Positions 21,754 through 57,226 of a stretch of DNA of 64,000 nt are shown one piece after another. Position 1 is the stretch's first letter. Each line of letters opens with the position of its first letter. The position numbers and the translations under genes were made by a program. Below the pieces are notes generated by a model. The model saw nothing but the letters and a program-made list of their open reading frames with translations. It had not been told where the DNA came from and did no database searches. Source of the stretch: a virus (Duplodnaviria > Caudoviricetes); the IMG/VR virus record IMGVR_UViG_3300014205_000004, positions 60,497 to 124,496 of that record; one strand, 5' to 3'.

Positions 21754-22139
21754 AAGACATCCTGGACGACCGAAAAGGTCTGACACCGCGGCAACTCGTG
21801 GTCCTCTGCCAGGAGATCGACTACCAGGACGACATCAGTCTGGCAACACAGCTGCAAGCTGGCGCGATGAGCGTAACAGCCCTCGCCAGCGTCATGGCGA
21901 TGATCATGGGCGGGACGTCAGAAGGCGTCGACCCGATGAATCCAGTACACAACATGCTGGAGCTCGTCCAGACCCTACTTACAGGTGAGAAGAGTCAAGC
22001 CCAGCTAGAAGCTCAAGCGATGAGTGAACGGGAGAAAGAACTCCAGGCCGAACTTCTGGACCACCCGATGTTCCAGAAGTTCCGTGCGGGCCAGCGAGGA
22101 GAGAAGTACCCGTGGCATCTCGAATCTTCCAGCAAATAG
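21642..22139 (+). CDS. tail assembly chaperone -1 frameshift extension (GT-like)
   Basis: The -1 frame is open from the slippery heptamer through the 21798-22139 ORF. Confidence 0.75.
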   Translation, partial: PFIPGYDPEYRPTTREDDRFTEDRLIARAAVRANLSLEDILDDRKGLTPRQLVVLCQEIDYQDDISLATQLQAGAMSVTALASVMAMIMGGTSEGVDPMNPVHNMLELVQTLLTGEKSQAQLEAQAMSEREKELQAELLDHPMFQKFRAGQRGEKYPWHLESSSK

Positions 22140-30977: not shown

Positions 30978-31343
30978 ATGAGAATGTCGACGACCCGTTG
31001 GATGCCTGATACCTGCGCCTGCGTGCTTGAGTACACGTACGATGCCGACCTTCCTGACGACCAGCGCGAGCACACTCCGACCACCGTCACGCCCTGCGAG
31101 CGCCACGCACATGGGGAGACAGAGTTGGAGTTCCTCGCCGCGCACACCGACAACGTGGTCAAGAACAACACGCACCGTCTGCTCAAAGAAGAGTTCCCCG
31201 ACATGGAGGACAGCGACTTCGAGTGGGACTTCGACCATCCCGATGGTCAGCTCCGCTACAACGTCAAAGGCAGGACAGTCAGTGCCGCGGCGCATGCGCG
31301 CGTTACCGGCCAGGTTCCTGGTGTGGTGAGGCGTGGCAACTAG
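30978..31343 (+). CDS. hypothetical protein in the tail module
   Basis: ORF between tail genes; W.PDTC.C motif; start 30978 or 30984. Confidence 0.55.
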   Translation: MRMSTTRWMPDTCACVLEYTYDADLPDDQREHTPTTVTPCERHAHGETELEFLAAHTDNVVKNNTHRLLKEEFPDMEDSDFEWDFDHPDGQLRYNVKGRTVSAAAHARVTGQVPGVVRRGN

Positions 31344-33243: not shown

Positions 33244-36200
33244 ATGGCTACTGCAATGACGGGGTCCGGGGAGTTTCAACGGGCAGAATCCGGGTTCTTC
33301 AGAAGCTGCGAGTCGGGTGGTTACCTTTACTCTGCCGACGTAAACTACCCTGCGGATCTCATTAAATCCGACCTCACAACCCACCAGCGAGTAGCTGCGA
33401 TCGCCCTCCGCGACGAGAACCCGGACTATCACCACTGCTGGGACATTGTGACTGCAGGTGGGTACCTGTACTTATCCGTGCACAACGCAGACACGACTGT
33501 GCACAACATCGTCAAGGTGGACATCAGCACCTTTACGGTAGTGGACAGTTTGGCGCTTTCTAGCTCCACCTGGTTCTCCAGACTGATTGTCAACGGCACG
33601 ACGTTGTACGTGACCGCCACAAACGGCGATGACGCCGCCACTGTGTTCGAGATCGACCTGACCACGTTTACGGAGACCGACAGCCTGGTACTTGACGCCA
33701 ACGAGGCCGCTTGGGACGGTGTTTTGGTCGGGACAACCTTGTACCTGAGCACAAGACAGGCACCAGCCCGTGTAGTGCGCGTAGACACCACCACGCTGAC
33801 GCGGATAGACTCGCTCACGCTGTCTACGGGCGAAGATTACGCTTTGGATATTCTTTCAGATGGCACCGATCTATACGCCATTTGTGCTGGCGACGCAGTT
33901 TACGACCCTGTCGTCGCCGTGAAGATCAATATCGCTTCGTTCACTCGCACATCTGCGCTCACTCTAGACAGTGACGAATGGTACTTCACGTATCTTGGGT
34001 GCGCAATGCTTGACGGCGGGTTCATATATGTAGGCACTTACAACAGCAAAATCGTAAAAGTGCAGACGTCTGACATGACCAGGGTCGGCGCTCTTGCGAT
34101 GTATGGAGGTTTATCAAGCCTTACAGTCTATGGCGGCAGCATTTTCGCAGTTTGTCCGAATGTGGCACCATCACGGGTGGATGAGATACTCATATCCACG
34201 TTCACAACCACCGCGAATGCGTGGAGATTCGGTTGGGGAGATGGCTACCTAGCTCGTGGCGTGGGCGTGCTAGGTACGAACTTCTACGTATATACCGAGC
34301 AGCACTCGTTTATGGGAGGCAAGCTCCTTAAGCTCGACCAAGTCAGCCTTGCTGTGCTCGGCGAATACAGCCTTACTGAAGATATAGCATACGCATTCTG
34401 CGTGGGTCCTGATGGCTACATCTACATCACAGCAGACTGGAAGCTGCTGCGGATCGACCCGACCGACATGAGCTTGGATGCTTCTTTGACTTCCTCATAC
34501 GGCCCCATTAAGGCGCTCGCGTCAGACGGGGCAACGTACTTGTTCGGTGCCACAGATCAGGGCAACGTCGTAGCCTACTCGTTCGCGTCGTTTGTGGAAG
34601 TGAGCTCACTCGCTACTGCGGAAAGCTCCCTCCGAGGGCTGACCTATGGAGACGATGGGAATCTGTACGCATCTGCTGGCTTGAGCCCGGATAAGATTCT
34701 CAAGATAACTCCTTATCCGGCGTGGGACGGAGTCGACGACCTGGTTCTGGACACTGGAGAAAACGGAGTTGGATGGCTGGCCGCGGTTGGTGGGTACACG
34801 TACGTCAACACCAACGCAGGCGAGATTGTCAAGATAGACCAAGCCAGCATGACGCGGGTCGGAAGCTTGTCTCCGGGCGGTGGCATGAGCAGTGAGCTGC
34901 TCGTCCACGACGGATTCCTTATAACGCGGGGCAGCACCATAAATACCGTGTTCGTTGACCTCAGCACGTTCACGGTCAGCGACACAGTAGCAAGCAGCAG
35001 TCTTTTCAGCGAACCCGCAGTCCTGGCCGTTAACGCAGGCACCGACACGATCTTCATCGCAGGACCTAACTACGCGAACGGTGTGGCTTTTGCCAGGCTG
35101 GAAATGTACATAGGTACGCCGGTGTCCGCCACGTTGACTATTCCGCTCGAAGCGCTGGAGCAGAGTGTCCACAGCACGCACACCCTGCTGACTGAAGCCA
35201 AGAGCGGCCTCCGTGTGCCGTTCCTCACGCTTGGCGAGAACTGGGTGAACATTCTGCATCAGATCTCTGCGGCAGGGATCGACACGGTCCTGTACCCGAA
35301 CAACCAGGACATCGACAGCGCGATTGCCGGCGAAGGTTCGGGCGAGGTGCGGTCGCGCCCAGCGCTCTACCGAGTGGACATCCGGGGCCAGATCATTGAG
35401 GACCTCAGTGACCGCGTCATCTCAGCCACAGTGGCCGGTACGCGCTCCGAGGTAGTCAGCCGTACTGCCCAGATTGTCGTCCGGAACACTGACGGCCTCG
35501 ACCTCAAGACCGACTACCTGATGCCTGCCATGATTTGGGACATCAGCGGGATTGACGTCGTCTTCCCGTACGGCATTTTCCAGGGCAGCGTGCCTCGGAA
35601 GACCACAACGGAGAAGGACCGGCGTGTGACGCTGGTCTGCAACGACCTCTCGATTCATCTGACCGAGAAGTTTAGCTACCCGTTCACCGTCCCTGCGGGG
35701 ACGAACTACCGTGACGCCCTGGCTGCTGTCTGGCAGCTGACGAAGCTGAAGGGTAACGCGCTCAACATCCCGCCCATCAACGAAACGCTCCCCAATGCGT
35801 TCACGTGGGAGCCGCGGGGTGCGTTCGGTGTTGCTCTGAACGGCCTGCTCCAGGGCGTGAACTTCCTGCCCATCTACATCTCGAAGAATGACGGGGCCGG
35901 GCTCAGCCGGCCCCGTGAGTTCCTGCGTGACCGTGCCCCGGACGTCACGTACACGTCCGACCCTCTCGTGGACGGCACGTACCTCATCACCGGTAACTTC
36001 GATGAGGAAGACGACAACACCGAGCAGAAGAACGAAGTCATTGTCGAGGTGAATGACCCGCTGCGCGACCAGTTCTGGGAGACGTACTACATCGAGAATG
36101 CTCTCTCGCCGATCGTCATCCCCTACCGGCACGGCTTCACAGGCTTCTCGGCTACGGACTACTGGGAGGCCGCTGGTCTGACCGCGGAGTCACTGGTTGA

Positions 36201-37716
36201 TGCCGCAGACGGTACGCTCTCGTACCCGACCTTCGGCGTGCCTGGTACTGTCGCTCTCGGCGGGTGGGTGTGGTACGACCCGACCGACACTGGCCGCGTC
36301 ATGGGCGGCTTCTGGGAGACGACCGAAGCAGCGTCCTCGATCGTCTTGATGGCGAACGGCGAAGGCGGTAAGCCGGCCGTTGGCATTGTGACCAACCCCA
36401 CCAGCAACCTCGCGTCGGGTACCGTCACCGAGTGGCTGGAGAGCCCGTACTTCCCTACCGAGGGCTGGCACCGTGTTTCCGCAGTGTTCTCCGCAGGTGG
36501 GCACTCCGGGCCCAACCTTCTTTCGAATGCCGGCTTCGAGTCTGGCGACACCGCACCGGGTTCGAACTGGAACGCCAACACAGGTACTGACAGGTCGTTC
36601 TCCTTCAACGCCGACCACTCGGAAGGCGCACGGTCGTTGGAGATGACCGAAACTACGGCGTACAACACCGGCGCTATTGTCGACCAGGTCGTCTCGCTCG
36701 CTGCGGCCATTCCGGCTGGCTCGAAAATCCGGTGCAGCTTTGACCGCCGAGTTATCGCCTCTTCCAGTCACCGCTTGCTGGCTGATGTGTACGTCAAATA
36801 CCGGTACTCCGATGGCTCGGTAGGTGACTGGACGTTGCTGAAGTCGAACACGGAAAATCCACTCAGTGTCGGCTCCTTCGAGACCACTACGTTCATCTCG
36901 AACGACACGACTCTTGATGTTGTTGCACTCAAGCTCACAGTGCATATCCTCAACACCAGCAGTGCAACTACCGGCACAGTGCGCATCGACAATGTCAAAC
37001 TGTCCCTCGGTACGCGCCCGTCCCTTACCCTCTTTGTGGATGGCGTGGCTGTGGCTACGTCGATCACTCCGCAGGCGTTCCTGCACGCAGTAAACACGAA
37101 CACGTTCAAGATCGGCGGTCCTGGTACAGGCTGGGATTCTGGCACGCCTGCAGACGACGGCACGCCGGCGCGGCGCGTTCACGACTTCGGTGTGTGGTAC
37201 GGCTCAGCATCCGCAGAGACTGCTGAGAGTGCCACCCAGGAGCTCGCGCTGTACAACGGCCTCTGGCCGACGAACCAGCCGTTCTGCCTGGCCTACTGGC
37301 ACCTTGTGGCGACTGACGTGATCCCTGCTGTGGACCACACGTCGCACGGGTTCACGCTCTCACCGGTCGGCTCTCCGACCATCGAAGTCATCCAGGACTT
37401 CCTGGCAGATGTGGGCATCCGTGACCGCTTCCTTGCGATTCCTGACCCGGTCCGGTTGCCGCGTTCCCCGAATTCCGCAGCTGCTGCTGTGTCGGCCAGG
37501 ATCTTCGCTGAAGAGAACGCTTCGCAAATCAAGAAAGCGACACTCATCACTACAATTGATCCTCGAAGAGACCTCAATGAGGTTTACAGAATTCGCCTCA
37601 TCGACGCTCAAGGTGTTATAGTTACAGATGACAAGTGGGTAGTCGATGGCTGGTCTGTGGAACTTCGCGCAGGCGGTCGGATGACCCACCAGATTCGGCG
37701 GATTGAGGAGTCCTAA
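33244..37716 (+). CDS. large tail-tip protein (beta-propeller-like + hub-like + LamG-like + CBM-like regions)
   Basis: About 40-aa blade repeats in the N-terminal 620 aa; WHRVSAV...LTLFVDG LamG-like motif; NLLSNAGFE...IDNVKL CBM-like motif. Confidence 0.7.
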   Translation: MATAMTGSGEFQRAESGFFRSCESGGYLYSADVNYPADLIKSDLTTHQRVAAIALRDENPDYHHCWDIVTAGGYLYLSVHNADTTVHNIVKVDISTFTVVDSLALSSSTWFSRLIVNGTTLYVTATNGDDAATVFEIDLTTFTETDSLVLDANEAAWDGVLVGTTLYLSTRQAPARVVRVDTTTLTRIDSLTLSTGEDYALDILSDGTDLYAICAGDAVYDPVVAVKINIASFTRTSALTLDSDEWYFTYLGCAMLDGGFIYVGTYNSKIVKVQTSDMTRVGALAMYGGLSSLTVYGGSIFAVCPNVAPSRVDEILISTFTTTANAWRFGWGDGYLARGVGVLGTNFYVYTEQHSFMGGKLLKLDQVSLAVLGEYSLTEDIAYAFCVGPDGYIYITADWKLLRIDPTDMSLDASLTSSYGPIKALASDGATYLFGATDQGNVVAYSFASFVEVSSLATAESSLRGLTYGDDGNLYASAGLSPDKILKITPYPAWDGVDDLVLDTGENGVGWLAAVGGYTYVNTNAGEIVKIDQASMTRVGSLSPGGGMSSELLVHDGFLITRGSTINTVFVDLSTFTVSDTVASSSLFSEPAVLAVNAGTDTIFIAGPNYANGVAFARLEMYIGTPVSATLTIPLEALEQSVHSTHTLLTEAKSGLRVPFLTLGENWVNILHQISAAGIDTVLYPNNQDIDSAIAGEGSGEVRSRPALYRVDIRGQIIEDLSDRVISATVAGTRSEVVSRTAQIVVRNTDGLDLKTDYLMPAMIWDISGIDVVFPYGIFQGSVPRKTTTEKDRRVTLVCNDLSIHLTEKFSYPFTVPAGTNYRDALAAVWQLTKLKGNALNIPPINETLPNAFTWEPRGAFGVALNGLLQGVNFLPIYISKNDGAGLSRPREFLRDRAPDVTYTSDPLVDGTYLITGNFDEEDDNTEQKNEVIVEVNDPLRDQFWETYYIENALSPIVIPYRHGFTGFSATDYWEAAGLTAESLVDAADGTLSYPTFGVPGTVALGGWVWYDPTDTGRVMGGFWETTEAASSIVLMANGEGGKPAVGIVTNPTSNLASGTVTEWLESPYFPTEGWHRVSAVFSAGGHSGPNLLSNAGFESGDTAPGSNWNANTGTDRSFSFNADHSEGARSLEMTETTAYNTGAIVDQVVSLAAAIPAGSKIRCSFDRRVIASSSHRLLADVYVKYRYSDGSVGDWTLLKSNTENPLSVGSFETTTFISNDTTLDVVALKLTVHILNTSSATTGTVRIDNVKLSLGTRPSLTLFVDGVAVATSITPQAFLHAVNTNTFKIGGPGTGWDSGTPADDGTPARRVHDFGVWYGSASAETAESATQELALYNGLWPTNQPFCLAYWHLVATDVIPAVDHTSHGFTLSPVGSPTIEVIQDFLADVGIRDRFLAIPDPVRLPRSPNSAAAAVSARIFAEENASQIKKATLITTIDPRRDLNEVYRIRLIDAQGVIVTDDKWVVDGWSVELRAGGRMTHQIRRIEES

Positions 37717-38336: not shown

Positions 38337-40886
38337 ATGGAACCGATCGCCTGTGCCCGTAAAGGGTGTGACATCGTCTTTACCCCGAAGGAACCCAAGA
38401 ATCGATTTCACGATCCTGTCTGTGCGGACGAAGACTACAACGAGCGCAAGCGCGAGAAGCGCCTCAAGAAGCACGCGACTGAGACGGCCGGCGAGCAAGG
38501 TGACATCTTCGAGATGAAGAAGATCCGCTGCTCTCGCTATGGCTGCGAGGAGCTCTTCGTACCGAAGTCCATCAACCACCAGTACCACTCCGACGTCTGC
38601 GCCAGCCAAGCGAAGAGCGACAAGAAGCTGCTGCGGCAGATTGAGGACGTGGACCCCGCGGTTGTGCGGGCTGCTGAGTCGGAACTGGTGAAGGAAGCGG
38701 AGCGCCAGCTGGGTGTGGTCCAGCGTCGGCTGCTGAAGGAAGAGTCCCGGTCAGCCATCACCCTCCAGCGCATCGATGAGTACCTGAGCGGGAACCCGAA
38801 GCCGCGTCATGCGCTCTACCCGGTTCGCTCTCTCAAGAAAGCCGGCAACGGCGCAGCGACGGACTGCCACTTCGTGTTCTCGGATCCCCAGGGCGGGAAG
38901 TGGAACTCGGGCATCGGGCTGCAGGCCCTCCTCGAAGCGTACCTGCCGGCAATTGCGGAGAAGATTATCCGCTGCGTGGAGGTCCAGCGCTTCGAAGGGC
39001 CCGTAGACACGTTCTTCTTCCACATGGTCGGCGACATCGTCGAAGGCTGCTTGCCGGCCGGCACACCTGTGCTCACTCCAACCGGTCCGAAACACATCCA
39101 AGACTTAAAACCCGGAGACTCTGTGTGGGCCCACGGGCCTGATGGCTTCAAGCAGCGCGTTGTGACTGCAGCGGCTATGACTGGCATAAAGCCGATTCAC
39201 ACCGTAGTTAGCACGGAGCGCACTCTGCGTGCTAGCCCTGAACACCCCATCCTTGTTCGCCGCGACGTAGAAGTGAGCGGGCATGCATCTCCGAATCGTC
39301 ACCGCTACGAGGTCACACACAGTTACGTTGCCGCGCAGGACGTCCGCGCTGGGGACTACCTGTGCATTGTCGACAGCGTGCCGGATGTGGGGTCCACTTC
39401 GACCCCAACTCGGGACGCGTCGGTAGAGCTGATGGAGTTCCTCGGCTTCTATGTGGGCGACGGATGCCTCACACGTAACGCCAACGGAGAACCAAACGGA
39501 GTTTTCCTCTCGCACGGCGCTGACGCAAGCTACATGGCTCACTACGTCGACAACTGCAAGACGCTGTTCTCGAAGCAAAAGAACTCGCAAGACACTTCAG
39601 CAGTGGCGGTTGCGCCAAAACCCTCACAAGCATCTGGGACCCGGTTCGGTTCCGTAGCAGCAGCCAACGAGATCCTCGCGCTCGGATTCGCTGGAGACTC
39701 CCGAACTAAGCGGGTACCTGCCTGGGTGTTCACACTTACCAGGGAACTACGGCTGGCCTTCCTCCGCGGCTACTTGGACTCGGACGGCTCAGTGAACAAG
39801 CTAGGTCAGGTCACCTTCGCGACCGTTAATCGCGGACTTATTGAAGACATCCAGGCGCTCTGCCAGGGCTTGGGAATTCTTGTCTCGCGCATCAGGACGC
39901 ACGAACGAGTGTGCCCGCTGCCTCAAGGAGGCGAGCAGCAGTCGACAATCTTCGTTATCAACTGCGGATCACCCGACCTCAACCAGGAGATTGGCAGCCA
40001 CACCCCACAGTATCTGGACCGTTGGGCCCAGCGTAGTGGGACTCGCAGGACACGCAACTACGCTGTCACGAGCAAGGGGCGCATCCCGGCCGCACCGATC
40101 GGCTGCAGATATAGCTTGGTGAAGTCGAATGACGTTGGCCTAGCAGAACCGACATACAACATCTCAGTCGAAGGACTTGAGACGTTCATCGCTGACGGCG
40201 TCGTGACACATAACTGCGCCATTTACCCAGGCCAGCGCCAACACCTCGACCGCTTCCAGAATGGAGACTCCGCGGTCGACCAGGTCCTGACCATGGCTGA
40301 CGCTATCTGCGACATCCTCATCGCCAGGCTGCGGCCCTACTTCAAGAACTTCGTCTTCGCCAACGCGTTCGGCAACCACGGGCGCACCGGTAACAAGCTG
40401 GACCCGGCACTCGACAAAGATAACCGCGACCGATTGGTGGCCGAGATCGTCAAGCGCATGTGCAGCCACATGGACATCCAGTGGATCATTCCCGAGCGCG
40501 ATCGCTATGTGGTCGAGTCGATGGGTTACAGCATTGGCGGCATCCACGGGCATCAGCTGGGTAACAAGAGCAGCCTCAACGCCATGGAGCTTCCGATCCT
40601 CCGCTGGGACGCGTTGCGCCACTTCGGGACCAACCTGGACGGCCTCGTCATGGGCCATCGGCATCACCCGGCTTCGCTCGACATGAACGGCATCGAAGTC
40701 ATCCAGAACGGTGCGCTAGACGGTGGTTCTGATTGGTTCACGAACACCACGGGTGCGTGGGCTCAGCCGAGCCAGGAACTGTTCTTCGTGAGCGAGGAGT
40801 TCTTCATCGGGACGCGCCGGCGGCTCTACGTGACACCAAAAACGCCGCGGGCCCGAGCAGTTTCTCAGTGGTCATCCGCGGCGTAA
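38337..40886 (+). CDS. calcineurin-like metallophosphoesterase with N-terminal Cys-rich repeats, intein-containing
   Basis: FSDPQ, GDIVEG, GNHGR, IHGH, MGHRH motifs; two C...GC...F.P...H...C repeats. Confidence 0.85.
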   Translation: MEPIACARKGCDIVFTPKEPKNRFHDPVCADEDYNERKREKRLKKHATETAGEQGDIFEMKKIRCSRYGCEELFVPKSINHQYHSDVCASQAKSDKKLLRQIEDVDPAVVRAAESELVKEAERQLGVVQRRLLKEESRSAITLQRIDEYLSGNPKPRHALYPVRSLKKAGNGAATDCHFVFSDPQGGKWNSGIGLQALLEAYLPAIAEKIIRCVEVQRFEGPVDTFFFHMVGDIVEGCLPAGTPVLTPTGPKHIQDLKPGDSVWAHGPDGFKQRVVTAAAMTGIKPIHTVVSTERTLRASPEHPILVRRDVEVSGHASPNRHRYEVTHSYVAAQDVRAGDYLCIVDSVPDVGSTSTPTRDASVELMEFLGFYVGDGCLTRNANGEPNGVFLSHGADASYMAHYVDNCKTLFSKQKNSQDTSAVAVAPKPSQASGTRFGSVAAANEILALGFAGDSRTKRVPAWVFTLTRELRLAFLRGYLDSDGSVNKLGQVTFATVNRGLIEDIQALCQGLGILVSRIRTHERVCPLPQGGEQQSTIFVINCGSPDLNQEIGSHTPQYLDRWAQRSGTRRTRNYAVTSKGRIPAAPIGCRYSLVKSNDVGLAEPTYNISVEGLETFIADGVVTHNCAIYPGQRQHLDRFQNGDSAVDQVLTMADAICDILIARLRPYFKNFVFANAFGNHGRTGNKLDPALDKDNRDRLVAEIVKRMCSHMDIQWIIPERDRYVVESMGYSIGGIHGHQLGNKSSLNAMELPILRWDALRHFGTNLDGLVMGHRHHPASLDMNGIEVIQNGALDGGSDWFTNTTGAWAQPSQELFFVSEEFFIGTRRRLYVTPKTPRARAVSQWSSAA
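39048..40214 (+). mobile_element. intein with LAGLIDADG-type homing endonuclease (389 aa)
   Basis: Starts CLPAGTPV; block B SPEHPIL; LGFYVGDG and FLRGYLDSDG endonuclease motifs; ends TYNISVEG..TFIADGVVTHN followed by Cys+1. Confidence 0.93.
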
Positions 40887-47055: not shown

Positions 47056-47430
47056 CTACGTAGCTTGAGGACGGAACGGGCCACACCCCGGTACTCGCGT
47101 CTCAGCTGAGGGCGAACCAGGAATCGTGACGATGCACTTCCACCAGACGGCCACGGAGTCTTCGAACGTGTTGAAGGACGTGCTCGGGAAGCGGAAGTCG
47201 ATGATGCCATCAGTCCCGAAGGGAAGGTTCGTGAACCACTCCGCGTCATCCGTGGTGTTGAACGAGATGATGGCAGACCCGTCAGCTGTCAAACGAGTCG
47301 CCTTCAATAGGATCACTGCTGACGCACCGGTCAGGTTCCGCGGCCGGCCGTGACCGTCACGCACGCGAAGACGGATGGGGTGGTCGGTCCCGAGTACCGG
47401 TTCAAGCGGAGTGATGACTGGTGAGTTCAC
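47056..47430 (-). CDS. BppU-like/virion-associated small protein
   Basis: G....I.L.V.D..G.P.NLTGAS pattern. Confidence 0.5.
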   Translation of the reverse strand: MNSPVITPLEPVLGTDHPIRLRVRDGHGRPRNLTGASAVILLKATRLTADGSAIISFNTTDDAEWFTNLPFGTDGIIDFRFPSTSFNTFEDSVAVWWKCIVTIPGSPSAETRVPGCGPFRPQAT

Positions 47431-47439
47431 AGGGCCCCT

Positions 47440-50400
47440 TTAGTACTGGTCATTGAGGTTCGGGTCTGTGTACCAGAGCCCGTCTACGTCTTGGGCGTCG
47501 GCGTACCCTTCGATGACCTGAGCGAGGGGAAGGAGGCCTGTAATCTCAGTGTACGCCTCAATGATGCCCAGGATGATGGACAGGCGCGCGAGTGCGACGC
47601 GAGCTTCAATCGGAAGGACCTGGAGCAGGCGTACGGTCTGCGTTGCCTCGAAGGCCGTCTCGATGAGCTTGGCGACGCCAAGGTTGGCTTCGAGAGTGAA
47701 GACCTCGTCCACCAGGAGCTCTTGCAGGGCCTCGATGGGGCCTTCCTTGGCGAGCGCGAGGCGCTGCGCGGCTTCGATGATCGCGACGTTGCCGCGCGTC
47801 ACACCGCTGAGTGCCTCCACCTTCAGCTGCTCTACGACGAGGTTGACGCCAACCAAGCCTTCGGTCTTAAGGCTCAAAGCCATAAGCAGTGAGCCATAGG
47901 CTTCTATAGGAAAGACCTTAGACGCGGTCAGGTTCAGGAGCGCCTCAACCGGTACCAGCTCATCCTTGGTGATGCCCAGCTGTGCTTCGATTTCGACAGT
48001 CACCTGCTCCGCGATGTTCAGGACAGCCTCTTCGAGAGTCTGCTGCTGAATGGAGAGGATCTGAAGTGCTTCGATCGGCATGACAGCCAGGGCGGTGATG
48101 ACGCCCGGCGAGCCGAGGTTCTCGATCTGGAGCGACACAGCGCTCGCGACACCACCGAGTGCCTCAATGAGCGACTCGACAGTCGATGCCAGGCCGCGGG
48201 TCGCTTCGCTCGGAGCAGCGACCGTGAACGCGACGAGGGCAATGGCTTCGGGATGAGTGACAAGGCCCTGAGAGAGGGCGAACAGTGCTTCGATGTGATT
48301 TTCGACCGTAGCCGTCAGCCCGCTCAGCGCCTCTACGTCGCCTTCGTGCACGGCCATGACGCCTTCGAGAGACTCGATGGGGTTGGTCGTTGAGGCGATA
48401 ACGCCGTTGAGGACCTCGACCGCGGACTCGCGCGTCAGCGACAAACCCATGAGAGCTTCGATCGGGTTCCCGTTCACCGAAACCAGGTTGGCCAGCGCTT
48501 CCAGTGCAATGTCTTCAGCGAAGCCCATCTGCTGCATCGCTTCAATGCCGGCCTCGATGGGGATAGAAAGGCCCTGTGCCGCCTCGCTCAGGAACTGGAC
48601 CACGGCGTACAGCCCCTGCGCTGTTTCGTACTCAACATCCATCAGGCTGCTGATGCCGGCGATGACTTCAGTGAGCGGGACGCTCGTGAGCCGTAGGTTC
48701 TGAATCGCCTCGATAGGCACTTCCGCCAGGGCAGAGACGACGAGTCCGTCATACAGGACTTCGGTGGGAGCGCCGAGAAGTGACGACACACCACCGAGGG
48801 CCTCGATGATTGCCTGCGTGAATTCCTTGACGCCGACAACGGCTTCCGTTGTGGCTTCAATGTCCACCGAAACGAGGGCCATGCCTTCGGTCTGAATCGG
48901 GTTGACGATCTCGGTGTACTGGAGGGCCTCGGTCTGTGCTTCCTCGCCCGCGGCGACGCCCTGCTGTGCTTCTGTGGCGATGGTACCCAGGATTAGCGAG
49001 ATGTTGGCCTGGGTCTCCACGGGGATCGGGCTCGCTTCAACGATGTCCTGCAGCGTCTCAAGCGACACAACGCCAGTCATCACCAGCGAGGCCAGTGCTT
49101 CCAGCGGGAAGGCCGCGAGCGTAAACGCGGTCGTCTGCTCGACCTCAGTGTGCAGGACCGATGCGATGACCGCGCCACCGAGAGCTTCGATAATTGCTGC
49201 GGCCAGGGCGTTCGCTGCAGCGAGACCTTCGTACTGCACGGTCATCGAGAACGGCACCACGACCTGGCTCGCTTCGATGTTGATAGCGTGCTGGAACTGC
49301 GCCAGCTGAAGGGCTTCGATACTGGTGACATGCGCGGACCCGATACCGCTCGTCGCCTCGATAACCATTTCCCGAGTCTGCAGGAGAGCCTGCAAAGCTT
49401 CAGTCCGAGTAGTCAACAGCATACTCTCCTGATGAAGTGCCTCCAGCATACTATCTGATGCCGCGGAAACTTCAGTTAGAGCTTCAATCAAATTGACTTG
49501 TTGTGATGACAATCCACCAAGTGCTTCAATCTGTTCCTGGTTGGCCGCAGCGATCTGCTGCACGGCTTCGGTCAGCGTCGAAATCAGCATGCTTGCCTGC
49601 TGCACGCCTTCAATCGGGAGGACCGGCACCAAGCTGAGTGCCTGCAACGCTTCGATGATGGCTACGAAGGTCTGGCTGACGGGCGTCCCACCGCCGACAG
49701 CAAGGGCGATGTCGAACACCGTGCCAGAGTCCCGAAGGGAGAAGTCGAACGGGTTGCCAGAACCATCACCCAGGTTCTCTGTGAGAGCCGTGAGCGTTGC
49801 GGAGACACCCTCCTGGGCCTCGATGAGCGCTAGGAATGCTTGGCTGACAGGGATCAGTACGTAATCGGATGGACGTATGGCGATCATCGCGGCCATCATC
49901 GCGGCCGACCCCGCGTCCGTGTACGTCGCTGTGCCTGTAGCGCCAGCTTCAGTCGGCCCATCCACCCAGTACGAGTCGAGCTCTGCACCGCCGGTGTCGT
50001 CGTGGATCTCCGTCCATCCCGACATGTTGCCAGCCAAGCCTGCCCAAGCCCGCCCAAATGCGACCAGGAGCGTCTTTCCGGTGGTGGTATTCATCGACGG
50101 AATCACGACCGACGAGGTCGCGCCATCGTTATTTACTGACGAGTACCCATCGATCGGGACACCCATGCCCTGGGTCCCGACAATGCGTACGATTTGGATG
50201 TAGTTGTCGTTGTCCGTGGTCCACGTCCAGGTGAGAGCAGGCGCTGAAGCGCCGCGTCGAATCCAGTACCAGTACTGGTCGCACGACTGTCCGCCGTTGT
50301 TGCCTGCTGTGCCTATGTAGCTCCAGCCAGCAGGAGCCGTGACGCCCGTTGAGCTGCCGTTCTGTACCTGCAGGCAGGCGAGCAAAACGTCAGTCTCGCG

Positions 50401-53400
50401 CGTATCAGCCGGCTCGACACCAAGGGCTGAGTTGTTGGCTCCGTAAATTCGATGCTCGTAGCCAGCAAAGTCAGGTGCTTGCCCCTTCTTACGCAACACC
50501 GCTGACCAGGTGGCAGCTACGCTACTCCCACCGAGAGACCAGGTCGCGACGCCGGTCGTGCCCGGTGTCGTAAACACACGATAAGACATCGCGAAGCCGC
50601 CCCCGCCGTTACCGGCTGGGTTGCGGTTTTCGATTTCTGTGTGGCTTGTCGGGACGGTGATCGTTTGGCTGGTGCCCAGCGTAAGGCCACAGACCATGAC
50701 CGAGTCTTGCCCCCATCGTGTGACCGACAGCGAACCAGGATTGCTTGAAGTCGAAGCGGTATCGAATCTTGGGCCGGTATCGAATGGCGAGTACGGGTCA
50801 ACATTGCGCCACACCGACAGCTGTATGGAGTAGTCTCCAATGCTGCCACCGGTCGTCCACACGAGGGACGGTGCAGACGCGCCGCGTTTGATGCAGAAGA
50901 CGTGGATGTCGTTGTTCGCCCCGTCTGGCGCAGAACCAAGGCTGGTCCAGCCAGCCGGTGCTGTTGGAGCGCCGGCGACGTTGTCCGTCACGTGCGCCAG
51001 GTAGAAGTCGTCTTCGAGTGCGCCAGGCACGTCGACCGCGGTGAGTTTTGCGGTGACCTCGGAGGAGCCAACGAGCACGACGTCGGTCTGCGGCGTATAC
51101 GCTCCCGCAGAGGTAGCCGACTTCAGGAGAATTGACGCGGCACGACCCTCTGTTGCTGCTGCGGTCACGACATCGACAGTACCCGTCAAGCCGTTGGCAG
51201 AGAGGACCTTGTCGTAAACCTTTGCCGCAGCTGCCCCGCTGTTGTCGTAGCGCTCGTCAAAGCCCGCCGGCGTTGTTGCCGCCGAGTAGTTGTCCTCGAC
51301 CGCGATGACGACGTGCAGGTCGTTGGTGTACGCCGCCCACACCGAAGGAGCGATGTGGCTGGTCGTGGTGCCCTCATGGGACACCAGGAACGCATCAAAA
51401 GGCGTCGTCTGGTCGACGCCGACGTACAGGCTAGTCACTACGTCCGAGAAGACGTACTCAGCACCTGCCGTCCACTGGAGCGCTTGGTAGTCGCCAGCGT
51501 CTCCTGGCTCGACGAACTTGTAGAGGACCACCCAGTGGTCGCCACTTGTCGGCTGCCAAGCGTCCCAAAGCAAAGACCAGCCAGCAGGAAGCGACAGTCC
51601 CGTCAGCACGGCGGACTCGTAGTTGATGGTCGCGGACGCGATCGCCAGGTCACCCACCTGTGCGTTCGCGTTGATGTCAAAGATGTGGGTGATCGTCTCA
51701 CCGTTGTGCCCGGTGCCGCCCGGCGAGGCACTACCACTGACGTCGGAGCGCCGCCAGTATGCATTCGGCAGTTCGCTTCCTTGCTTGCGCCGGAAGTCGC
51801 TCGTCGGAACGTTCAGGTAGCTGCTGAACGTGAAAAGGCCGGACTTGATGGTGTAAGGGTTGGCGGTACCTTCCTGCCACACGGTAAGGATCCGCCCATC
51901 GGGCGTGACTGCTGCCATTGGTGCCCGGCGGTCCGCCGACGTCGTGTCTGTCAGGTCGACGATCGGGCCCCAAGCCCTGGCGTCGGCCATCCAGCGCCGA
52001 TACGCAATGCGGTAGTTGCCTGCGCCGATGTACCGGGAGTACACCATCACCAGGTCAGGTGAGTTCGGGACGCGGCAAAGACTCGGCTGCCGGTCCTGGA
52101 AGCTCCCGCCCAGGTGAGCGCCGTTTGCCCACGTGTCTGACCAGGATTCGTAGTAGGTGTATCCGATCTTCGTGTCGTTGGTATCGCCCTTGCCCCAGAC
52201 GTACACAAACACACCGTTGCCGTCGGCCATCCCGTGTGCACGGTCAGCCCAGTTGTTCCAGATGACCGCTTCGGCATCTGTAGACGGATCCTCGGTCTGC
52301 TGCGTGGACCAAGTCGTGAGCCCGTCGGTAACTAGGTGCCTACGCCAACCGACCACATCGCCACCTGTCGCGGTGACAGCCAGCAGAGTTGCGCGATCGG
52401 GACCACACACACCCATAGCGGTGTAGCTCTGAGTCCCGCTGAGGTCAGACGTGCTGAGGGACTGAGTCCAGGTGGCTCCAGCATCGGTTGAGTAGAAGAA
52501 CCGCTGGCTCCACGAACCTACCCACGCCCCCATGTGGACCCACATGTAGCCACGGGCATCGACCGAGATGTGTCCGTTTTCAGCAACGTTCGTACCCCAG
52601 TCGACTCCAGATGAGTCGATAGCGACGGGGCTGGACACGGACCACGTACCACCGCTGCGCGTCAGCCTATAGAAGTTCAGGTTGGCTGTGTACGAAGACG
52701 TGACGACGTATATGCAGTCCTGGAGCTCGTCGTAGCGTACAGCCCTGAGGTACTGGCTGGAGATGGTTTGTGGCAGCAGCCACCCGGTGTACGCACTGTT
52801 CGCTACCGAGAACACGGTGTTCGAACCGTTGTACCATGCCAGGAACGCTTGCCCGTTGTTGGTGATGATCAGGCTATCTGGCGTGGACTTCAGTGTGTCA
52901 GCAGAGCTGGTGCCGGGGTTGTCCGCGACGACGTCCACGAGAAGCTCGATGATCGCCCCGCCAAACGATCCAACCTGCGTACCGAGGTCGCTGAACGTGG
53001 CTGTAGGACTGGTCGCGCCGGTACGCTGAAAGGCAAACGACGATATGTACGCGAGATCGTTGTTGACCAGCTGCGTGTAGTCCGTAGGCACGCTAACTGT
53101 GCCGTTAGCGTCGTTGGACTTTGCGCCAAGTACCAGCACATAGTTTGTAGGTGTCGGGTCACCTCCGAGGCTCACCGCACTAGCTTCGGTGTTTCCTCCA
53201 CCTTCGTTCGTCGCCGTAAGTACAATGGCTTGCGCTTCGGCATTGTTGGGGTCGAAGTCGCCAGAGTTAGGTGTGACTTCGACAATGACCCAGGCATAGT
53301 GATAGTGCTGGATGGACGCAGTGACGTCTATTTGCAGTGTGCGAGCACCGCTCGTTGGAATACATGTGAACAACGCGCCTCGGCAGTCGAAAAACGTCTC

Positions 53401-53628
53401 CGTGTTCCATGCGACTTCGTTGCTTTCACCGACCTTCGTCCAAGTATCTGACGTACCGGCTGTGGTCGTAACAGCTATGGGCGTTGTGCCCTCATTGTGC
53501 CCGTTCTCCTCCACCCACACGTACAAGTAGACCTTACCGCCAACAGTCGGCGTGAAGCTGCCCGTTGAAGTAGTCTCTGAAGGTACGCCTACCGTGCCGC
53601 CTGACGCAATGTGGGTTATGGTCGGCAT
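47440..53628 (-). CDS. 2062-aa virion fibre/adhesin-like protein with C-terminal 14-aa repeats
   Basis: N-terminal beta domains incl. an Asp-box-like STDAGATW; three PAGW-containing repeats; roughly 50 IEA-type 14-aa repeats. Confidence 0.75.
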   Translation of the reverse strand: MPTITHIASGGTVGVPSETTSTGSFTPTVGGKVYLYVWVEENGHNEGTTPIAVTTTAGTSDTWTKVGESNEVAWNTETFFDCRGALFTCIPTSGARTLQIDVTASIQHYHYAWVIVEVTPNSGDFDPNNAEAQAIVLTATNEGGGNTEASAVSLGGDPTPTNYVLVLGAKSNDANGTVSVPTDYTQLVNNDLAYISSFAFQRTGATSPTATFSDLGTQVGSFGGAIIELLVDVVADNPGTSSADTLKSTPDSLIITNNGQAFLAWYNGSNTVFSVANSAYTGWLLPQTISSQYLRAVRYDELQDCIYVVTSSYTANLNFYRLTRSGGTWSVSSPVAIDSSGVDWGTNVAENGHISVDARGYMWVHMGAWVGSWSQRFFYSTDAGATWTQSLSTSDLSGTQSYTAMGVCGPDRATLLAVTATGGDVVGWRRHLVTDGLTTWSTQQTEDPSTDAEAVIWNNWADRAHGMADGNGVFVYVWGKGDTNDTKIGYTYYESWSDTWANGAHLGGSFQDRQPSLCRVPNSPDLVMVYSRYIGAGNYRIAYRRWMADARAWGPIVDLTDTTSADRRAPMAAVTPDGRILTVWQEGTANPYTIKSGLFTFSSYLNVPTSDFRRKQGSELPNAYWRRSDVSGSASPGGTGHNGETITHIFDINANAQVGDLAIASATINYESAVLTGLSLPAGWSLLWDAWQPTSGDHWVVLYKFVEPGDAGDYQALQWTAGAEYVFSDVVTSLYVGVDQTTPFDAFLVSHEGTTTSHIAPSVWAAYTNDLHVVIAVEDNYSAATTPAGFDERYDNSGAAAAKVYDKVLSANGLTGTVDVVTAAATEGRAASILLKSATSAGAYTPQTDVVLVGSSEVTAKLTAVDVPGALEDDFYLAHVTDNVAGAPTAPAGWTSLGSAPDGANNDIHVFCIKRGASAPSLVWTTGGSIGDYSIQLSVWRNVDPYSPFDTGPRFDTASTSSNPGSLSVTRWGQDSVMVCGLTLGTSQTITVPTSHTEIENRNPAGNGGGGFAMSYRVFTTPGTTGVATWSLGGSSVAATWSAVLRKKGQAPDFAGYEHRIYGANNSALGVEPADTRETDVLLACLQVQNGSSTGVTAPAGWSYIGTAGNNGGQSCDQYWYWIRRGASAPALTWTWTTDNDNYIQIVRIVGTQGMGVPIDGYSSVNNDGATSSVVIPSMNTTTGKTLLVAFGRAWAGLAGNMSGWTEIHDDTGGAELDSYWVDGPTEAGATGTATYTDAGSAAMMAAMIAIRPSDYVLIPVSQAFLALIEAQEGVSATLTALTENLGDGSGNPFDFSLRDSGTVFDIALAVGGGTPVSQTFVAIIEALQALSLVPVLPIEGVQQASMLISTLTEAVQQIAAANQEQIEALGGLSSQQVNLIEALTEVSAASDSMLEALHQESMLLTTRTEALQALLQTREMVIEATSGIGSAHVTSIEALQLAQFQHAINIEASQVVVPFSMTVQYEGLAAANALAAAIIEALGGAVIASVLHTEVEQTTAFTLAAFPLEALASLVMTGVVSLETLQDIVEASPIPVETQANISLILGTIATEAQQGVAAGEEAQTEALQYTEIVNPIQTEGMALVSVDIEATTEAVVGVKEFTQAIIEALGGVSSLLGAPTEVLYDGLVVSALAEVPIEAIQNLRLTSVPLTEVIAGISSLMDVEYETAQGLYAVVQFLSEAAQGLSIPIEAGIEAMQQMGFAEDIALEALANLVSVNGNPIEALMGLSLTRESAVEVLNGVIASTTNPIESLEGVMAVHEGDVEALSGLTATVENHIEALFALSQGLVTHPEAIALVAFTVAAPSEATRGLASTVESLIEALGGVASAVSLQIENLGSPGVITALAVMPIEALQILSIQQQTLEEAVLNIAEQVTVEIEAQLGITKDELVPVEALLNLTASKVFPIEAYGSLLMALSLKTEGLVGVNLVVEQLKVEALSGVTRGNVAIIEAAQRLALAKEGPIEALQELLVDEVFTLEANLGVAKLIETAFEATQTVRLLQVLPIEARVALARLSIILGIIEAYTEITGLLPLAQVIEGYADAQDVDGLWYTDPNLNDQY

Positions 53629-53634: not shown

Positions 53635-54063
53635 TCAGGCCGTCTGAATCGAATAGGTCTCGCAGGTGATGGCGTGGCTACCGCCCGTACTGTCCAACGC
53701 CGCACCGCTCTGGTTCTCCACCGCGACTTTGAATTTCTTGGGCAGGTAAGGGACCAACCTGAAAGCCTTGATGTACGTCGTCGCGTTGGCGACAAGTGCG
53801 ATTGCCCCTAGCAGGACGCCTCCGTTCGCAGTGCTGTCCGGATAGGTCGTGCCGTTGTCCGCGGACGGAAGCAGGTACACGTTCGCCAGGCCGGTAGCAG
53901 ACACGCCGGAAGCACCCGTCTTGAGCTTGACGACCAGCCAGCCGTCCGTATCGAGGTTGCTGGAGTTGTCGATTTCGCTTGACGCAACGAACGTGTTGTT
54001 CGCCAGCGACGCGAGCGTGATCGTCACCGTCGGGTTGTGGGCGAGTGCCTTCGAAGTGGTCAT
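53635..54063 (-). CDS. putative virion structural protein
   Basis: AAGG RBS and ATG 54063; Ser/Thr/Ala-rich beta protein. Confidence 0.6.
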   Translation of the reverse strand: MTTSKALAHNPTVTITLASLANNTFVASSEIDNSSNLDTDGWLVVKLKTGASGVSATGLANVYLLPSADNGTTYPDSTANGGVLLGAIALVANATTYIKAFRLVPYLPKKFKVAVENQSGAALDSTGGSHAITCETYSIQTA

Positions 54064-54076
54064 GACTGTGTACCTT

Positions 54077-56026
54077 TCATGAGGAAGCCACGCCCTTCCA
54101 GGACGCGCCCGTGTGTGTTGCGTTTTCCATGCAGACGGCGAACACGTCGTCGACGTTGTCGTACCAGGTGAACGTGTAGTCGCCGCCGGCCGATGTCGTG
54201 ACGACTCCGATGAGTTCGTTGTTGTACTCACGGAAGATGCGCACGCTGAGCCCGGCCCCGTCGGCGTCCACGTAGCCGCTCACCGCGCCCGCAACCGTCC
54301 ACGTCATCGCGTGGTAGGTGGTCCACATGCTCCAACTCGCATACACGCTGGGGGAGGCGTCGAGTCGCCAGCTGCGGGTTACTTCAAGGTCAAGACGCTC
54401 TGTGTCGGGATCTGCCGGCCAGCGTTTGAAGGCGGATCTGGGAGCTCCGTAGAGTGTGACGTTGGTGTTCTTCTCCACGTCCTGCGTTGCCATACCCGAG
54501 TACAGCGGCTCCCAGCCTTCACCAGGACCTTCACCGCTGGCGCGCTCTGCCTGCAGCGCAACCGCGCTGGCAGCGACCGACGACCCGTGCACAACAACTT
54601 CGCTAACCAACCCCATAACGTAATACGACGTCTCTGCGAGGGTTGCGGCAGCTACGGTGTTAACGACGCGCCCCTGCGATGTAGCCGCGTTGTTCGGCGC
54701 GATGAGCTGATGGGTGGTGTGTGCGTGTGCACCGGGGCCCAAAGCGGACACACCGCTCGTGTAGTTGAGAATCATGAACCCGCTGAGGTTCCAGAACAGG
54801 TTTGCGGTCCCAGCGTAGATACGCAGTTCGTAGTAGTTGCGCCCGCGGGCGAGCGTCTCGAATGCTGACCCGTTTGTGCCGCCCGAGTCGATGCGATGAA
54901 CCAAGCTGTGCTGGCCCAACTCGAACGACGAAGTTCCCGCGAGGGTGTAGCTGGTGTAGGAGGCTTGGTCGCCAACCGCTACGTTCAACGCAACTCCGCC
55001 AGGTGCGTTCGTCTGCACCCAAAGGCAGACCGCGGACTCCTTCATCGTGATGTTCGTCGGTTCCTCGATGAGGAAGGTCCGGGACCAGGAGTCAGCATCT
55101 GCTGACGTCGTACCCGGAACCTGGCCGATCGTGTCGATGGCTCCGAGCATCAATGAGTTGAATACTGTCGTCGTGCCGGCAAGCGTGAACTCGTACGTCA
55201 CCACAATCATGCCGCCTACGCGACCGAACCGGCTGGCTACAGAAGTCTGAAGTTCGAGCGACTGCGCAGAGGTGTTAACGACTGACGTGATGTTGTATGC
55301 CGTGCGGAAGTGACAGGCGTTACCTGTAAGACCCTGCTCAGACAACCAGATGTTCTGAGACCCACCACCGCCACCAATACGCATAGACAGTGTCGCGTCA
55401 GTAGTGGACGCACTGGACGCACCTTCAGAACCCCAAAGTTCCAGAGAGGCATTTCGAAGCGTGTACGACGCTTCTGGTATGTAGGAGCCCCCGTTGCCTA
55501 TTCCGGGAATTGCGGTAGCCCCGCCGAGCGTGCTCCACGACGTTGTCGTGGCCGGGTACTGTGCTGTGCTCTCCAGTGGGATCCGAATCGTCTTAACCTG
55601 AGTTGCGCTCGTGTCGTCGTAGTCGTACGTGATGATCAGCTTGAACCAGTGGTTCGCCGTCGCGGTGCCGGCCGCGCTGAAACGCAACACCCAGTTTGCT
55701 GAAGAGCCAGACCAGTTGGTCGTGAAGTAGGACGTGACGTCCCGCTGAAACAGGAACACCTGGGACTCACCGCTGTTGGCCGGCGGGTTCGTGCTGGCGA
55801 CGCTGTCCCAGGTCGATCCGTTGTAGCTGATACCCAGGGTCGGAGACGTCATCGTCGCCGCGGTCGAGATGTTGTCGCGGCAAATTAGTTGAAGCGTGAC
55901 GCTCCGGAAAGTCTTACCAGACTCCGGCAGGTAGATGCTGATGTTCTGATCACGGTTGGTCGACACGGCGAGGTTGGTTGGGTCAACCGTCGTTGCGAAC
56001 TCAACCGTCTTGGTACGTGTCGCCAT
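54077..56026 (-). CDS. putative virion structural protein (649 aa)
   Basis: Ser/Thr/Gly/Trp-rich beta protein in a co-oriented block. Confidence 0.65.
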   Translation of the reverse strand: MATRTKTVEFATTVDPTNLAVSTNRDQNISIYLPESGKTFRSVTLQLICRDNISTAATMTSPTLGISYNGSTWDSVASTNPPANSGESQVFLFQRDVTSYFTTNWSGSSANWVLRFSAAGTATANHWFKLIITYDYDDTSATQVKTIRIPLESTAQYPATTTSWSTLGGATAIPGIGNGGSYIPEASYTLRNASLELWGSEGASSASTTDATLSMRIGGGGGSQNIWLSEQGLTGNACHFRTAYNITSVVNTSAQSLELQTSVASRFGRVGGMIVVTYEFTLAGTTTVFNSLMLGAIDTIGQVPGTTSADADSWSRTFLIEEPTNITMKESAVCLWVQTNAPGGVALNVAVGDQASYTSYTLAGTSSFELGQHSLVHRIDSGGTNGSAFETLARGRNYYELRIYAGTANLFWNLSGFMILNYTSGVSALGPGAHAHTTHQLIAPNNAATSQGRVVNTVAAATLAETSYYVMGLVSEVVVHGSSVAASAVALQAERASGEGPGEGWEPLYSGMATQDVEKNTNVTLYGAPRSAFKRWPADPDTERLDLEVTRSWRLDASPSVYASWSMWTTYHAMTWTVAGAVSGYVDADGAGLSVRIFREYNNELIGVVTTSAGGDYTFTWYDNVDDVFAVCMENATHTGASWKGVASS

Positions 56027-56076: not shown

Positions 56077-56140
56077 GATGCGAATTCAAAAAGCGCCGCA
56101 ACGCACCGTGCCGCCGAAGCGAACCACGGGAGGTACTGGG

Positions 56141-56875
56141 TTAGACGGTTGAGCCGGCTGCTTGGACGGTGTAGGAACTCTTGTACGGAGCCGCGGCAGC
56201 GGCGAGGGTCTGCTTTAGCCAGACGCCGATGGCCTCGCCCGCCGCGAGGTCCGTACCAGGCACGTTTTTGTCCGTGTCGTTGAAAGTCAAACCAGGGTCG
56301 GTGAGCCGGTTCGCGACCGAACCGGTGTCATCTTTTGAAGCAGCCAGAGCGTGCATGACGTCGGCTTCGGGGTCAGCACTCTGATTGATGGAAGCCGACA
56401 GCAGCGCCAAAGTCGCGTGCGTGTTCTTGATGAAGATCTTCTCAAAGCGGTCCTTGCCTACGGACGGGTCGCTGGCCGCGTTGATGAACAGGCGGCGGAA
56501 GCCACGCTCACCGACCGGGATCGTGCCGATCGTTGTGTCGTCGGTGTCGCGCCGGACAGTAACCACACCGATGGCATCCGACGCGAGAGCGACGCTGAGG
56601 ATGCGTTCGAACGCGTTGGTGGAGAGGTTGACCGGCGTGATGCCAGTCATGGCGATTGTCTGAGACGCAATCGCGCCACTGGCGAGCCGGCCCTTGACCG
56701 TGATGTTCTGGGTGTCGCTGGCGCTGGTGGATACCGCTTCGACGTCGTCGGTCGCGGCGATGTCGGTGAAAACGACGCGCGTCTTGGCATCGATCGCACC
56801 ACCAGACGTGGTGGTGTCGTCCTCCGGCATGTTAGCCGAGGCGTAGGCAATGATATCGCTGGCAGTAACGGGCAT
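56141..56875 (-). CDS. putative abundant virion structural protein
   Basis: AGGAG RBS; TAA stop followed by hairpins; GTDLAAGEAIGVWLK pattern; first gene of the block. Confidence 0.6.
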   Translation of the reverse strand: MPVTASDIIAYASANMPEDDTTTSGGAIDAKTRVVFTDIAATDDVEAVSTSASDTQNITVKGRLASGAIASQTIAMTGITPVNLSTNAFERILSVALASDAIGVVTVRRDTDDTTIGTIPVGERGFRRLFINAASDPSVGKDRFEKIFIKNTHATLALLSASINQSADPEADVMHALAASKDDTGSVANRLTDPGLTFNDTDKNVPGTDLAAGEAIGVWLKQTLAAAAAPYKSSYTVQAAGSTV

Positions 56876-56962
56876 GCCGGAGTGCTCCTGGAGAAGGTAT
56901 TGTAGCCTCTCCAGTATAGCGACTGATGCCGTGAGCCGAGCGGAAACCGATTACTAGACTGA

Positions 56963-57226
56963 CTACTTGCGTGTAGTGGAGTCTTCTTCACCTGGCATCG
57001 GCAACGCTTCCCAGACACGTCCACGAGGAAGCTTCTCCGGACCAGGCTCTTTGGTGAGAATCAGGATGAGACCGATCACCATCCCGATGTAGCTCATCAG
57101 GGCCCACCAGGCGTATGCCGGCGAGCGTCGCCGGTTGTGCGCGACGAGTAGCAACACACCCATAGGCATCCACAGCGGGAACGTGAGAATGCCCAGGATA
57201 CCGACGATTACTTCCAACTCACCCAT
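56963..57226 (-). CDS. small membrane protein
   Basis: GAGGAG RBS; two hydrophobic helices; next to attP. Confidence 0.6.
   Translation of the reverse strand: MGELEVIVGILGILTFPLWMPMGVLLLVAHNRRRSPAYAWWALMSYIGMVIGLILILTKEPGPEKLPRGRVWEALPMPGEEDSTTRK

Follow-up and report, generated by a model that had tools for sequence, protein, structure and literature searches.

A 14-residue, glutamate-anchored repeat shared by a giant protein and two tail-module proteins of an uncultured phage

The window analysed here, a stretch of 64,000 nucleotides, is the second half (positions 60497-124496) of a 124,496-bp virus record of IMG/VR that represents an uncultured phage. Its minus strand carries a giant open reading frame (ORF) of 2062 amino acids (aa), the C-terminal part of which consists of two arrays of 14-residue units, each opened by a short lead-in motif, and shorter copies of the same module occur in two proteins encoded in the tail module on the plus strand. 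The giant protein is laid out as follows:

47440-53628, minus strand: giant ORF, 2062 aa, ATG start, TAA stop
49852-53628, minus strand: N-terminal non-repeat region, residues 1-1259
49741-49851, minus strand: first lead-in (PVSQAF) and 2 units, residues 1260-1296
49684-49740, minus strand: 19-residue spacer between the two arrays, residues 1297-1315
47473-49683, minus strand: second lead-in (PVSQTF) and 51 units of 14 residues, residues 1316-2052
47443-47472, minus strand: 10-residue C-terminal tail, YTDPNLNDQY

Phase tracking along the 793 residues from 1260 to 2052 (window 47473-49851, minus strand) resolved 53 units of 14 residues, with a Glu at the anchoring position in 53 of 53. The original prediction for this DNA had placed about 50 copies between about 49850 and 47500, an estimate whose coordinates turn out to be accurate. 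The autocorrelation of Glu residues in the C-terminal part of the protein peaked at lag 14 (44) and lag 28 (38), and no lag-14 peak was present in the N-terminal 1240 residues. Against the 44 coincidences counted at lag 14 for residues 1260-2052, shuffled sequences gave 8.6±2.7, with a maximum of 18 in 5000 shuffles (z=13). When the unit is started one residue before the Glu, its consensus in the giant reads [IT]-E-A-L-Q-G-[LV]-s-x-x-x-V-x-P; written with the Pro first, it becomes P-[IVT]-E-A-L-Q-G-[LVI]. The lead-in TPVSQTF stands 10 residues before the first Glu, and the array as a whole is acidic, with abundant Ala, Leu, Glu and Val. Tandem Repeats Finder detected no 42-nt period in the DNA of the array, so the copies are old and diverged and have been kept at the protein level.

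The two tail-module proteins that share the repeat have the following layout:

31333-33243, plus strand: 636-aa tail-module protein, with three tandem beta domains of ~120 aa, the repeat module and a C-terminal domain of ~170 aa
32491-32733, plus strand: module in the 636-aa protein, lead-in AVSQTF, 3 units, lead-in-like ITQTF and 2 units, residues 387-467
33244-37716, plus strand: 1490-aa tail-module protein, with ~620 residues of propeller-like blades, the short module and a C-terminal part of ~820 aa
35119-35238, plus strand: module in the 1490-aa protein, lead-in PVSATL and 2 degenerate units, residues 626-665

A hidden Markov model (HMM) of two units built from the giant, searched against the 1456 six-frame ORFs of the 124-kb genome, recovered the 636-aa protein with an E value of 5.7e-7 and no other ORF. 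The about five copies that had been proposed for this protein are thus confirmed, both in number and in significance. An independent three-unit HMM, built from 310 blocks of metagenomic relatives only, matched the giant with E 2.5e-53 and the 636-aa protein with E 2.3e-8, again with no further significant match among the 1456 ORFs. The copy in the 1490-aa protein was not significant with unit-only HMMs, either giant-built or relatives-only (E 1.3 for the latter), so that the prediction that both short copies would score against a profile made from the giant holds for the 636-aa protein and fails for the 1490-aa one. A further HMM, comprising the lead-in and two units from the relatives, ranked the three window proteins first among the ORFs of the genome: the giant at 7e-21 (domain at residues 1260-1287), the 636-aa protein at 1.4e-5 and the 1490-aa protein at 2.2e-4, with the next ORF at 0.2. 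This last comparison is partly circular, since the training rows had been selected by the lead-in motif itself. When the 45-residue module of the 636-aa protein was aligned to the whole 1490-aa protein, it fell on residues 625-665 with 16 of 41 positions identical, including PF.TL in unit 2, and its score was reached by none of 2000 shuffles. About three copies had been expected in the 1490-aa protein; the presence of the module is supported by the lead-in HMM and by this alignment, and the number of units comes down to two degenerate ones.

The lead-in itself is a well-defined feature. The pattern T-P-V-[ST]-[QA], placed exactly 10 residues before the first Glu, was found in 30 instances among the relatives and in all three window proteins, where it starts at residues 1260 and 1316 of the giant, 387 of the 636-aa protein and 626 of the 1490-aa protein. 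A single-sequence phmmer search with the giant's array gave no match among the other proteins of the window; the short copies are found by unit profiles only. There is no similarity at the DNA level among the four module copies of the genome, and hence no sign of recent intragenomic exchange. In agreement with the original prediction, the module separates an N-terminal beta-rich part from the rest of the polypeptide in all three proteins.

The recurrence of one start motif in three proteins of a single phage, two of them encoded by adjacent genes, could also be read as the mark of a docking or co-assembly module, in which the lead-in and the first units bind the three proteins together or to one site of the virion, perhaps through strands that zipper into a mixed oligomer. 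The long array of the giant would then prolong an attachment element instead of being a passive spacer, a reading that overlaps with the 'assembly module' put forward in the original prediction. The 636- and 1490-aa proteins do have modules that are more alike than chance allows, as the alignment above indicates, and the giant has a separate mini-module, made of a lead-in and two units, of the same size as that in the 1490-aa protein. However, most relatives are known as single proteins only, and homo-oligomeric rods account for the same facts. We consider a docking role rather unlikely.

The repeat is not confined to this phage. A HMMER scan with residues 1300-2062 of the giant against 1.84 billion cluster representatives, at a cut-off of E<1e-3, returned 67 matching representatives, one of them a fragment 100% identical to the giant, which leaves 66 relatives. 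A Glu autocorrelation peak at lag 14 was present in 62 of these 66, and the profile of their 1372 units reads P(44%)-[IVLYFW]-E-[AS]-L(53%)-x-G(40%)-[VIL](80%)-[AS]-x-[TSA]-x-x-x, with positions 2, 5 and 8 hydrophobic. The family has a recurrent architecture, in which the array follows a non-repeat part (median 299 residues) and is itself followed by a C-terminal tail (median 40 residues); more than 150 aa lie N-terminal to the array in 60 of the 66 relatives, and more than 150 aa lie behind it in three. The giant, with its 10-residue tail, fits this C-terminal-array architecture, from which the two tail-module proteins both depart, with 154 (636-aa protein) and 814 (1490-aa protein) residues after the last phased Glu.

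Pfam and PHROG scans were carried out on 54 of the relatives. Where the front part was recognisable, it contained Laminin_G_3 (LamG) in 7 of 54, CBM96 in one and BNR_2 in one, and no Pfam family covered the repeat itself. Matches to PHROGs were to phrog_6079, 'tail protein' (seven relatives, within the repeat part), phrog_8510 (five) and phrog_2804 (three), 'virion structural protein', all of them uncharacterised and none matched by the three window proteins at E<=0.01. The giant and the 636-aa protein had no match in Pfam (E<=0.1), PHROGs (E<=0.01), NCBIfam or PDB sequences, and the family profile matched no chain of the PDB. As judged from these sequence comparisons, the repeat is an undescribed phage family, not unique to the giant and absent from Pfam, NCBIfam and PDB sequences. 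The earlier statement that the repeat was unrecognised is therefore borne out for well-described families and for the proteins of the window, but it needs qualifying for some relatives, which do match uncharacterised PHROGs labelled 'tail protein' or 'virion structural protein'. As a related observation, a 147-aa library protein (P0004) matches the final 147 residues of the giant at 100% identity, so the same phage, or a nearly identical one, has been sampled in another assembly.

Gene contexts of the relatives were obtained from pattern scans of viral contigs in IMG/VR and concern few loci. At one of them (L011) a 481-aa carrier, whose repeats match phrog_6079 with E 4e-20, lies four genes after the tape measure gene; at two others (L025 and L026) the genes beside the carrier match endolysins or transglycosylases weakly, and it is in such a place that the last structural gene usually lies. 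A 440-aa protein of another complete phage genome of 114.7 kb (L002:9866-11188) shares, at 33% identity, the triple domain with which the 636-aa protein begins (31333-32480), and has neither the repeat module nor the C-terminal domain. The triple domain thus occurs without the module in another phage, which shows exchange at the module boundary. The idea that the N-terminal domains are interchangeable accordingly gains ground from the differing front parts of the carriers (LamG, CBM96, BNR) and from this separate occurrence. The 114.7-kb phage had been considered as a close relative and was rejected, as it has no match to the array, to the 649-aa neighbour of the giant described below or to the 1490-aa protein.

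Structure prediction gave a usable model for one relative. The AlphaFold2 (AF2) model of the giant's own array, made from a 68-row alignment, had a mean predicted local distance difference test score (pLDDT) of 55, and its second half showed 11-residue strands joined by 3-residue turns; the ESM Atlas offered no usable match to the array. For the more regular relative P0019, AF2 gave a model with a pLDDT of 60-70 in the repeat and with two short strands in each unit ('(V)EA' and 'ILQT'), which would correspond to one solenoid coil per 14 residues. In a Foldseek search with this model the sole match at E<=0.001 was the head of BpaC (7o23, E 5.9e-5), at template modelling (TM) scores of 0.2-0.3, and other YadA-like heads ranked after it. 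An exhaustive aligner retrieved generic beta-solenoids with Z of 10-12, including the UspA1 and BpaC heads and phage tailspikes, and a viral structure library yielded fibre-type proteins, some of them labelled YadA-like. The fibrous stalk that had been proposed thus fits the P0019 model, a beta-solenoid with one coil per unit, whereas the model of the giant's own array matched nothing in the PDB.

Layers of 14 residues, ~4.8 Å apart, are known from the YadA-type heads; the BpaC head comprises 42 such units, and BpaC-like heads are defined by conserved glycines, G@1 and G@8 (PMC9543794). These heads are left-handed parallel beta-rolls of trimeric autotransporter adhesins, and such heads (for example BpaC 7o23, BoaA 3s6l, AtaA 3wp8 and UspA1 3pr7) are the best PDB matches of the P0019 model. 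They resemble the phage repeat in their long tandem 14-residue arrays, recurrent Gly and small or hydrophobic residues, and they too are rod-like parts, in their case of adhesins. The phage repeat differs in its invariant Glu, in its single Gly position (40-43%) without a second conserved Gly, and in its phage setting with no stalk or membrane anchor; moreover, its fold is a low-confidence prediction for a relative. No YadA-type Pfam family was found in the giant, the two tail proteins or the 54 relatives, and the profile search of the PDB returned no head domain. With no sequence match and the two defining glycines absent, the likeness to YadA-like heads is one of analogy, not of membership.

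The explanation that we favour, with moderate confidence, is that the repeat builds a periodic rod of virion fibres, which is capped by the lead-in and also acts as a junction module; the giant would use it at full length, and the two tail-tip proteins as a short connector. Each 14-residue unit would be one layer of the rod, most likely a narrow beta-solenoid or beta-roll similar to the 14-residue coils of YadA-type adhesin heads. At ~4.8 Å per layer, the 53 layers of the giant would make a rod of ~25 nm, probably an oligomer. At its N-terminal end the lead-in would act as a cap or nucleus, and the single invariant Glu residues of successive units would line up as a ladder along the rod. The rod of the giant would carry the multi-domain N-terminal part of 1259 residues, presumably engaged in binding to the cell surface, while within the 636- and 1490-aa proteins the cap plus two to five layers would serve as a short rigid connector. 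Since the module sits at domain junctions, it is also the point at which phages have exchanged N-terminal domains. A role in the tail is supported by the position of the 636- and 1490-aa genes, which lie after the tape measure gene in the phage studied. Functionally, this would probably be an ordinary class of protein, a fibre stalk, in a new sequence form.

Several observations weigh against this interpretation. The members of the family are known from sequences and predicted models alone, and the beta-solenoid comes from the model of a single relative, P0019, with an overall pLDDT of 49. The AF2 model of the giant's array has no PDB match and is internally inconsistent, with long helices in its first 280 residues and period-14 strands in its second half. 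The hydrophobicity spectrum is mixed, periods of 3.5, 2.8 and 2.0 being about equal, and [DSN]-P-x-E with a Gly after it can also be taken for a helix capping box that ends in a Gly C-cap; the units could thus be a short helix plus a strand. The N-terminal 1250 residues of the giant are without relatives in word-indexed searches with the segment and with the whole protein. Finally, the giant gene lies outside the tail module, on the opposite strand, in a run of ORFs without family matches (ORFans) between an SbcD-like gene and a serine integrase. The giant not being part of the tail module, we infer its presence in the virion from the module that it shares with the tail proteins.

The divided AF2 model is also what a metastable array might produce if it switched between helix and beta structure, as has been described for the central fibre of F7 pyocin and lambda-like tails, storing energy or changing its length upon receptor binding. 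The array, like that segment, is rich in Ala and Leu, together with Glu, and a preprint reports that, for those segments of siphophage fibres that truly switch, structure predictors are divided between the two states (He et al. 2026, PMC12874032). These segments belong to non-contractile tails and likewise yield both helix and sheet predictions. However, the published segments follow SxSxxMxxLxS and have a very high coiled-coil propensity, they reside in a gpJ-type protein, no 14-residue unit is reported for them, and the words 'repeat', 'heptad' and 'periodicity' are not used in that paper (PMC12874032). With its Pro at position 1 (44%) and its Gly at position 7 (40%), the phage repeat is a poor candidate for long coiled coils, and the giant has no Phage-tail_3 match and is therefore not a gpJ-type central fibre protein; no other gpJ-type Pfam match was found in the window proteins either. 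The split predictions may also merely reflect a shallow and badly registered alignment, and we regard such switching as highly improbable.

A more specific form of the rod is likewise conceivable. The array might be a homotrimer with the invariant Glu at the axis or interface, giving a carboxylate ladder of ~50 layers, possibly metal-binding, which would be anchored at its C-terminus and present exchangeable lectin-like N-terminal domains outward; alternatively, it might undergo a helix-to-sheet switch on binding. We consider this quite speculative and improbable. A classical tail fibre has its virion anchor at the N-terminus and its receptor-binding tip at the C-terminus, so that a C-terminally anchored rod with a Glu ladder, if true, would represent a fibre class of the opposite polarity, as had been put forward in the original prediction. 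In this regard, AVP3_0029 of Aeromonas phage AVP3 (Casjensviridae, PP601402.1), encoded after the tape measure gene, is the one cultured-phage protein encountered with a C-terminal 14-residue array, APYGLQPGVIADLT, which shares with the repeat described here the 14-residue period, a Pro-aromatic pair at the start of the unit and a Gly near its middle. Its units lack the Glu anchor, and its array lies C-terminal to a Phage-tail_3 domain, that is, in the classical polarity. It was taken up as a cultured-phage member of the family (tblastn E 1e-5) and rejected, as it gave no score with the relatives-only three-unit HMM; not being a member, it decides nothing on polarity. This 1461-aa protein (L017:5216-9601) ends in ~25 near-identical APYGLQPGVIADLT units and its repeat also appears to be undescribed.

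The N-terminal region of the giant has no family match and no detectable relatives. A jackhmmer search with five of its segments against the 66 relatives gave no match, nor did tblastn against 50,697 phage records in search of relatives of the giant, and viral and metagenome contigs yielded no close relatives of the giant. The region includes three to four segments that loosely resemble one another, with P-A-G-W-[ST] at residues 683, 893, 1101 and 1204. It also contains one perfect Asp-box, STDAGATW, at residue 380 (window 52465-52488, minus strand), with no Pfam match, which suggests a BNR/sialidase-like propeller at residues ~240-620. In the 1490-aa protein, the first 620 residues (33244-35100, plus strand) comprise at least eight blades of ~45 residues with the pattern G..LY...........V.V........SL; these recall YVTN-type beta-propeller repeats and went undetected by Pfam. 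The C-terminal part of the same protein has a weak match to CBM_4_9.

The giant gene comes third in a compact run of minus-strand genes whose products have 649, 142, 2062 and 124 aa. Its neighbours in the run are:

54077-56026, minus strand: 649-aa beta-rich ORFan, first gene of the run
53635-54063, minus strand: 142-aa ORFan, whose stop lies 6 nt before the giant's ATG
47056-47430, minus strand: 124-aa ORFan, 9 nt downstream of the giant's stop

None of the three has a family match, and the 649-aa protein obtained weak leads only in the ESM Atlas. The 142-aa ORF occupies the space that separates the giant from the 649-aa gene, where the ORF list shows just a longer GTG-start call (53635-54231, 198 aa) that overlaps the 649-aa gene. 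Downstream of the run lies the SbcD-like gene. Upstream of it is a 244-aa gene (56092-56962, minus strand), with TATACT/TACAAT-like boxes on its 5' side and a GC-rich hairpin with a T run on its 3' side; beside it are a gene for an 87-aa hydrophobic protein (56963-57226) and then the integrase, with a palindrome. From these sequence features the 244-aa gene looks like a self-contained, moron-like unit.

Such surroundings raise the question of whether the giant is a virion protein at all. It could instead be the product of a moron-like cargo gene next to the attachment site, expressed in the lysogen or set free at lysis; it might, for instance, bind or degrade glycans or act as an exclusion factor, and merely reuse a fibre-type repeat. 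Its location on the minus strand, among recombination genes, near the serine integrase and within a run of ORFans, would fit this idea, as would the neighbouring 244-aa gene with its own promoter-like site and terminator. On the other side, no signal peptide or membrane segment was seen at the giant's N-terminus when read by eye, the module is common to two proteins from the tail module of this phage, relatives are encoded in tail modules, and the flanking ORFans are beta-rich and structural-looking, though without assignment. We regard the cargo alternative as unlikely, if one to be taken seriously, and retain the rod of a virion fibre as our preferred explanation.

The genome as a whole provides the setting for both gene groups. 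The 124,496-bp record has direct terminal repeats and is rated complete. The late module on the plus strand is of siphovirus type and includes:

16122-17102, plus strand: major head protein
20325-21197, plus strand: major tail protein
22112-27058, plus strand: tape measure protein, 1648 aa

After the tape measure gene follow the genes of a 1304-aa protein with Ig_Rha78A_N and lectin-like domains, then those of the 132-, 636- and 1490-aa proteins, and then, 3' of the last two, that of a 187-aa protein matching 'tail fiber protein' PHROGs. The minus strand from ~41 to 64 kb encodes recombination functions (RuvC-like, SbcD-like and SbcC-like ATPase genes) together with RtcB and a large serine integrase. 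The capsid protein gave only a 22% match, to Bacillus phage G, and no prophage relatives of it were found in 185,579 genomes.

Two further observations concern other parts of the window. An 849-aa helicase/exonuclease-like protein (38337-40886, plus strand) has Hint, intein-splicing and LAGLIDADG matches at residues ~238-626, which indicates a homing intein. The octamer CTGAGTAC occurs at 10 sites of the window versus 1.3 expected, a count reached by no shuffle; the sites include 11635, 23217, 23292, 37768, 47028 and 51454, one copy falls within the promoter-like stretch that precedes the SbcD-like gene, and another inside the giant gene.

Fibrous repeats serve phages as scaffolds for mounting and exchanging host-recognition domains, and the general idea of a periodic stalk in tail proteins is in itself an ordinary one. 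A repeat with at least 66 sequence clusters and a clean start motif, and with no Pfam, NCBIfam or PDB entry, nevertheless constitutes a gap in phage annotation. An HMM of this repeat would label many structural proteins now called 'hypothetical' and would mark the junction at which binding domains are swapped, which helps in the prediction of host range and in the design of chimeric fibres. With an invariant Glu in every layer and predictions divided between helix and sheet, the repeat also makes a reasonable target for structure determination.

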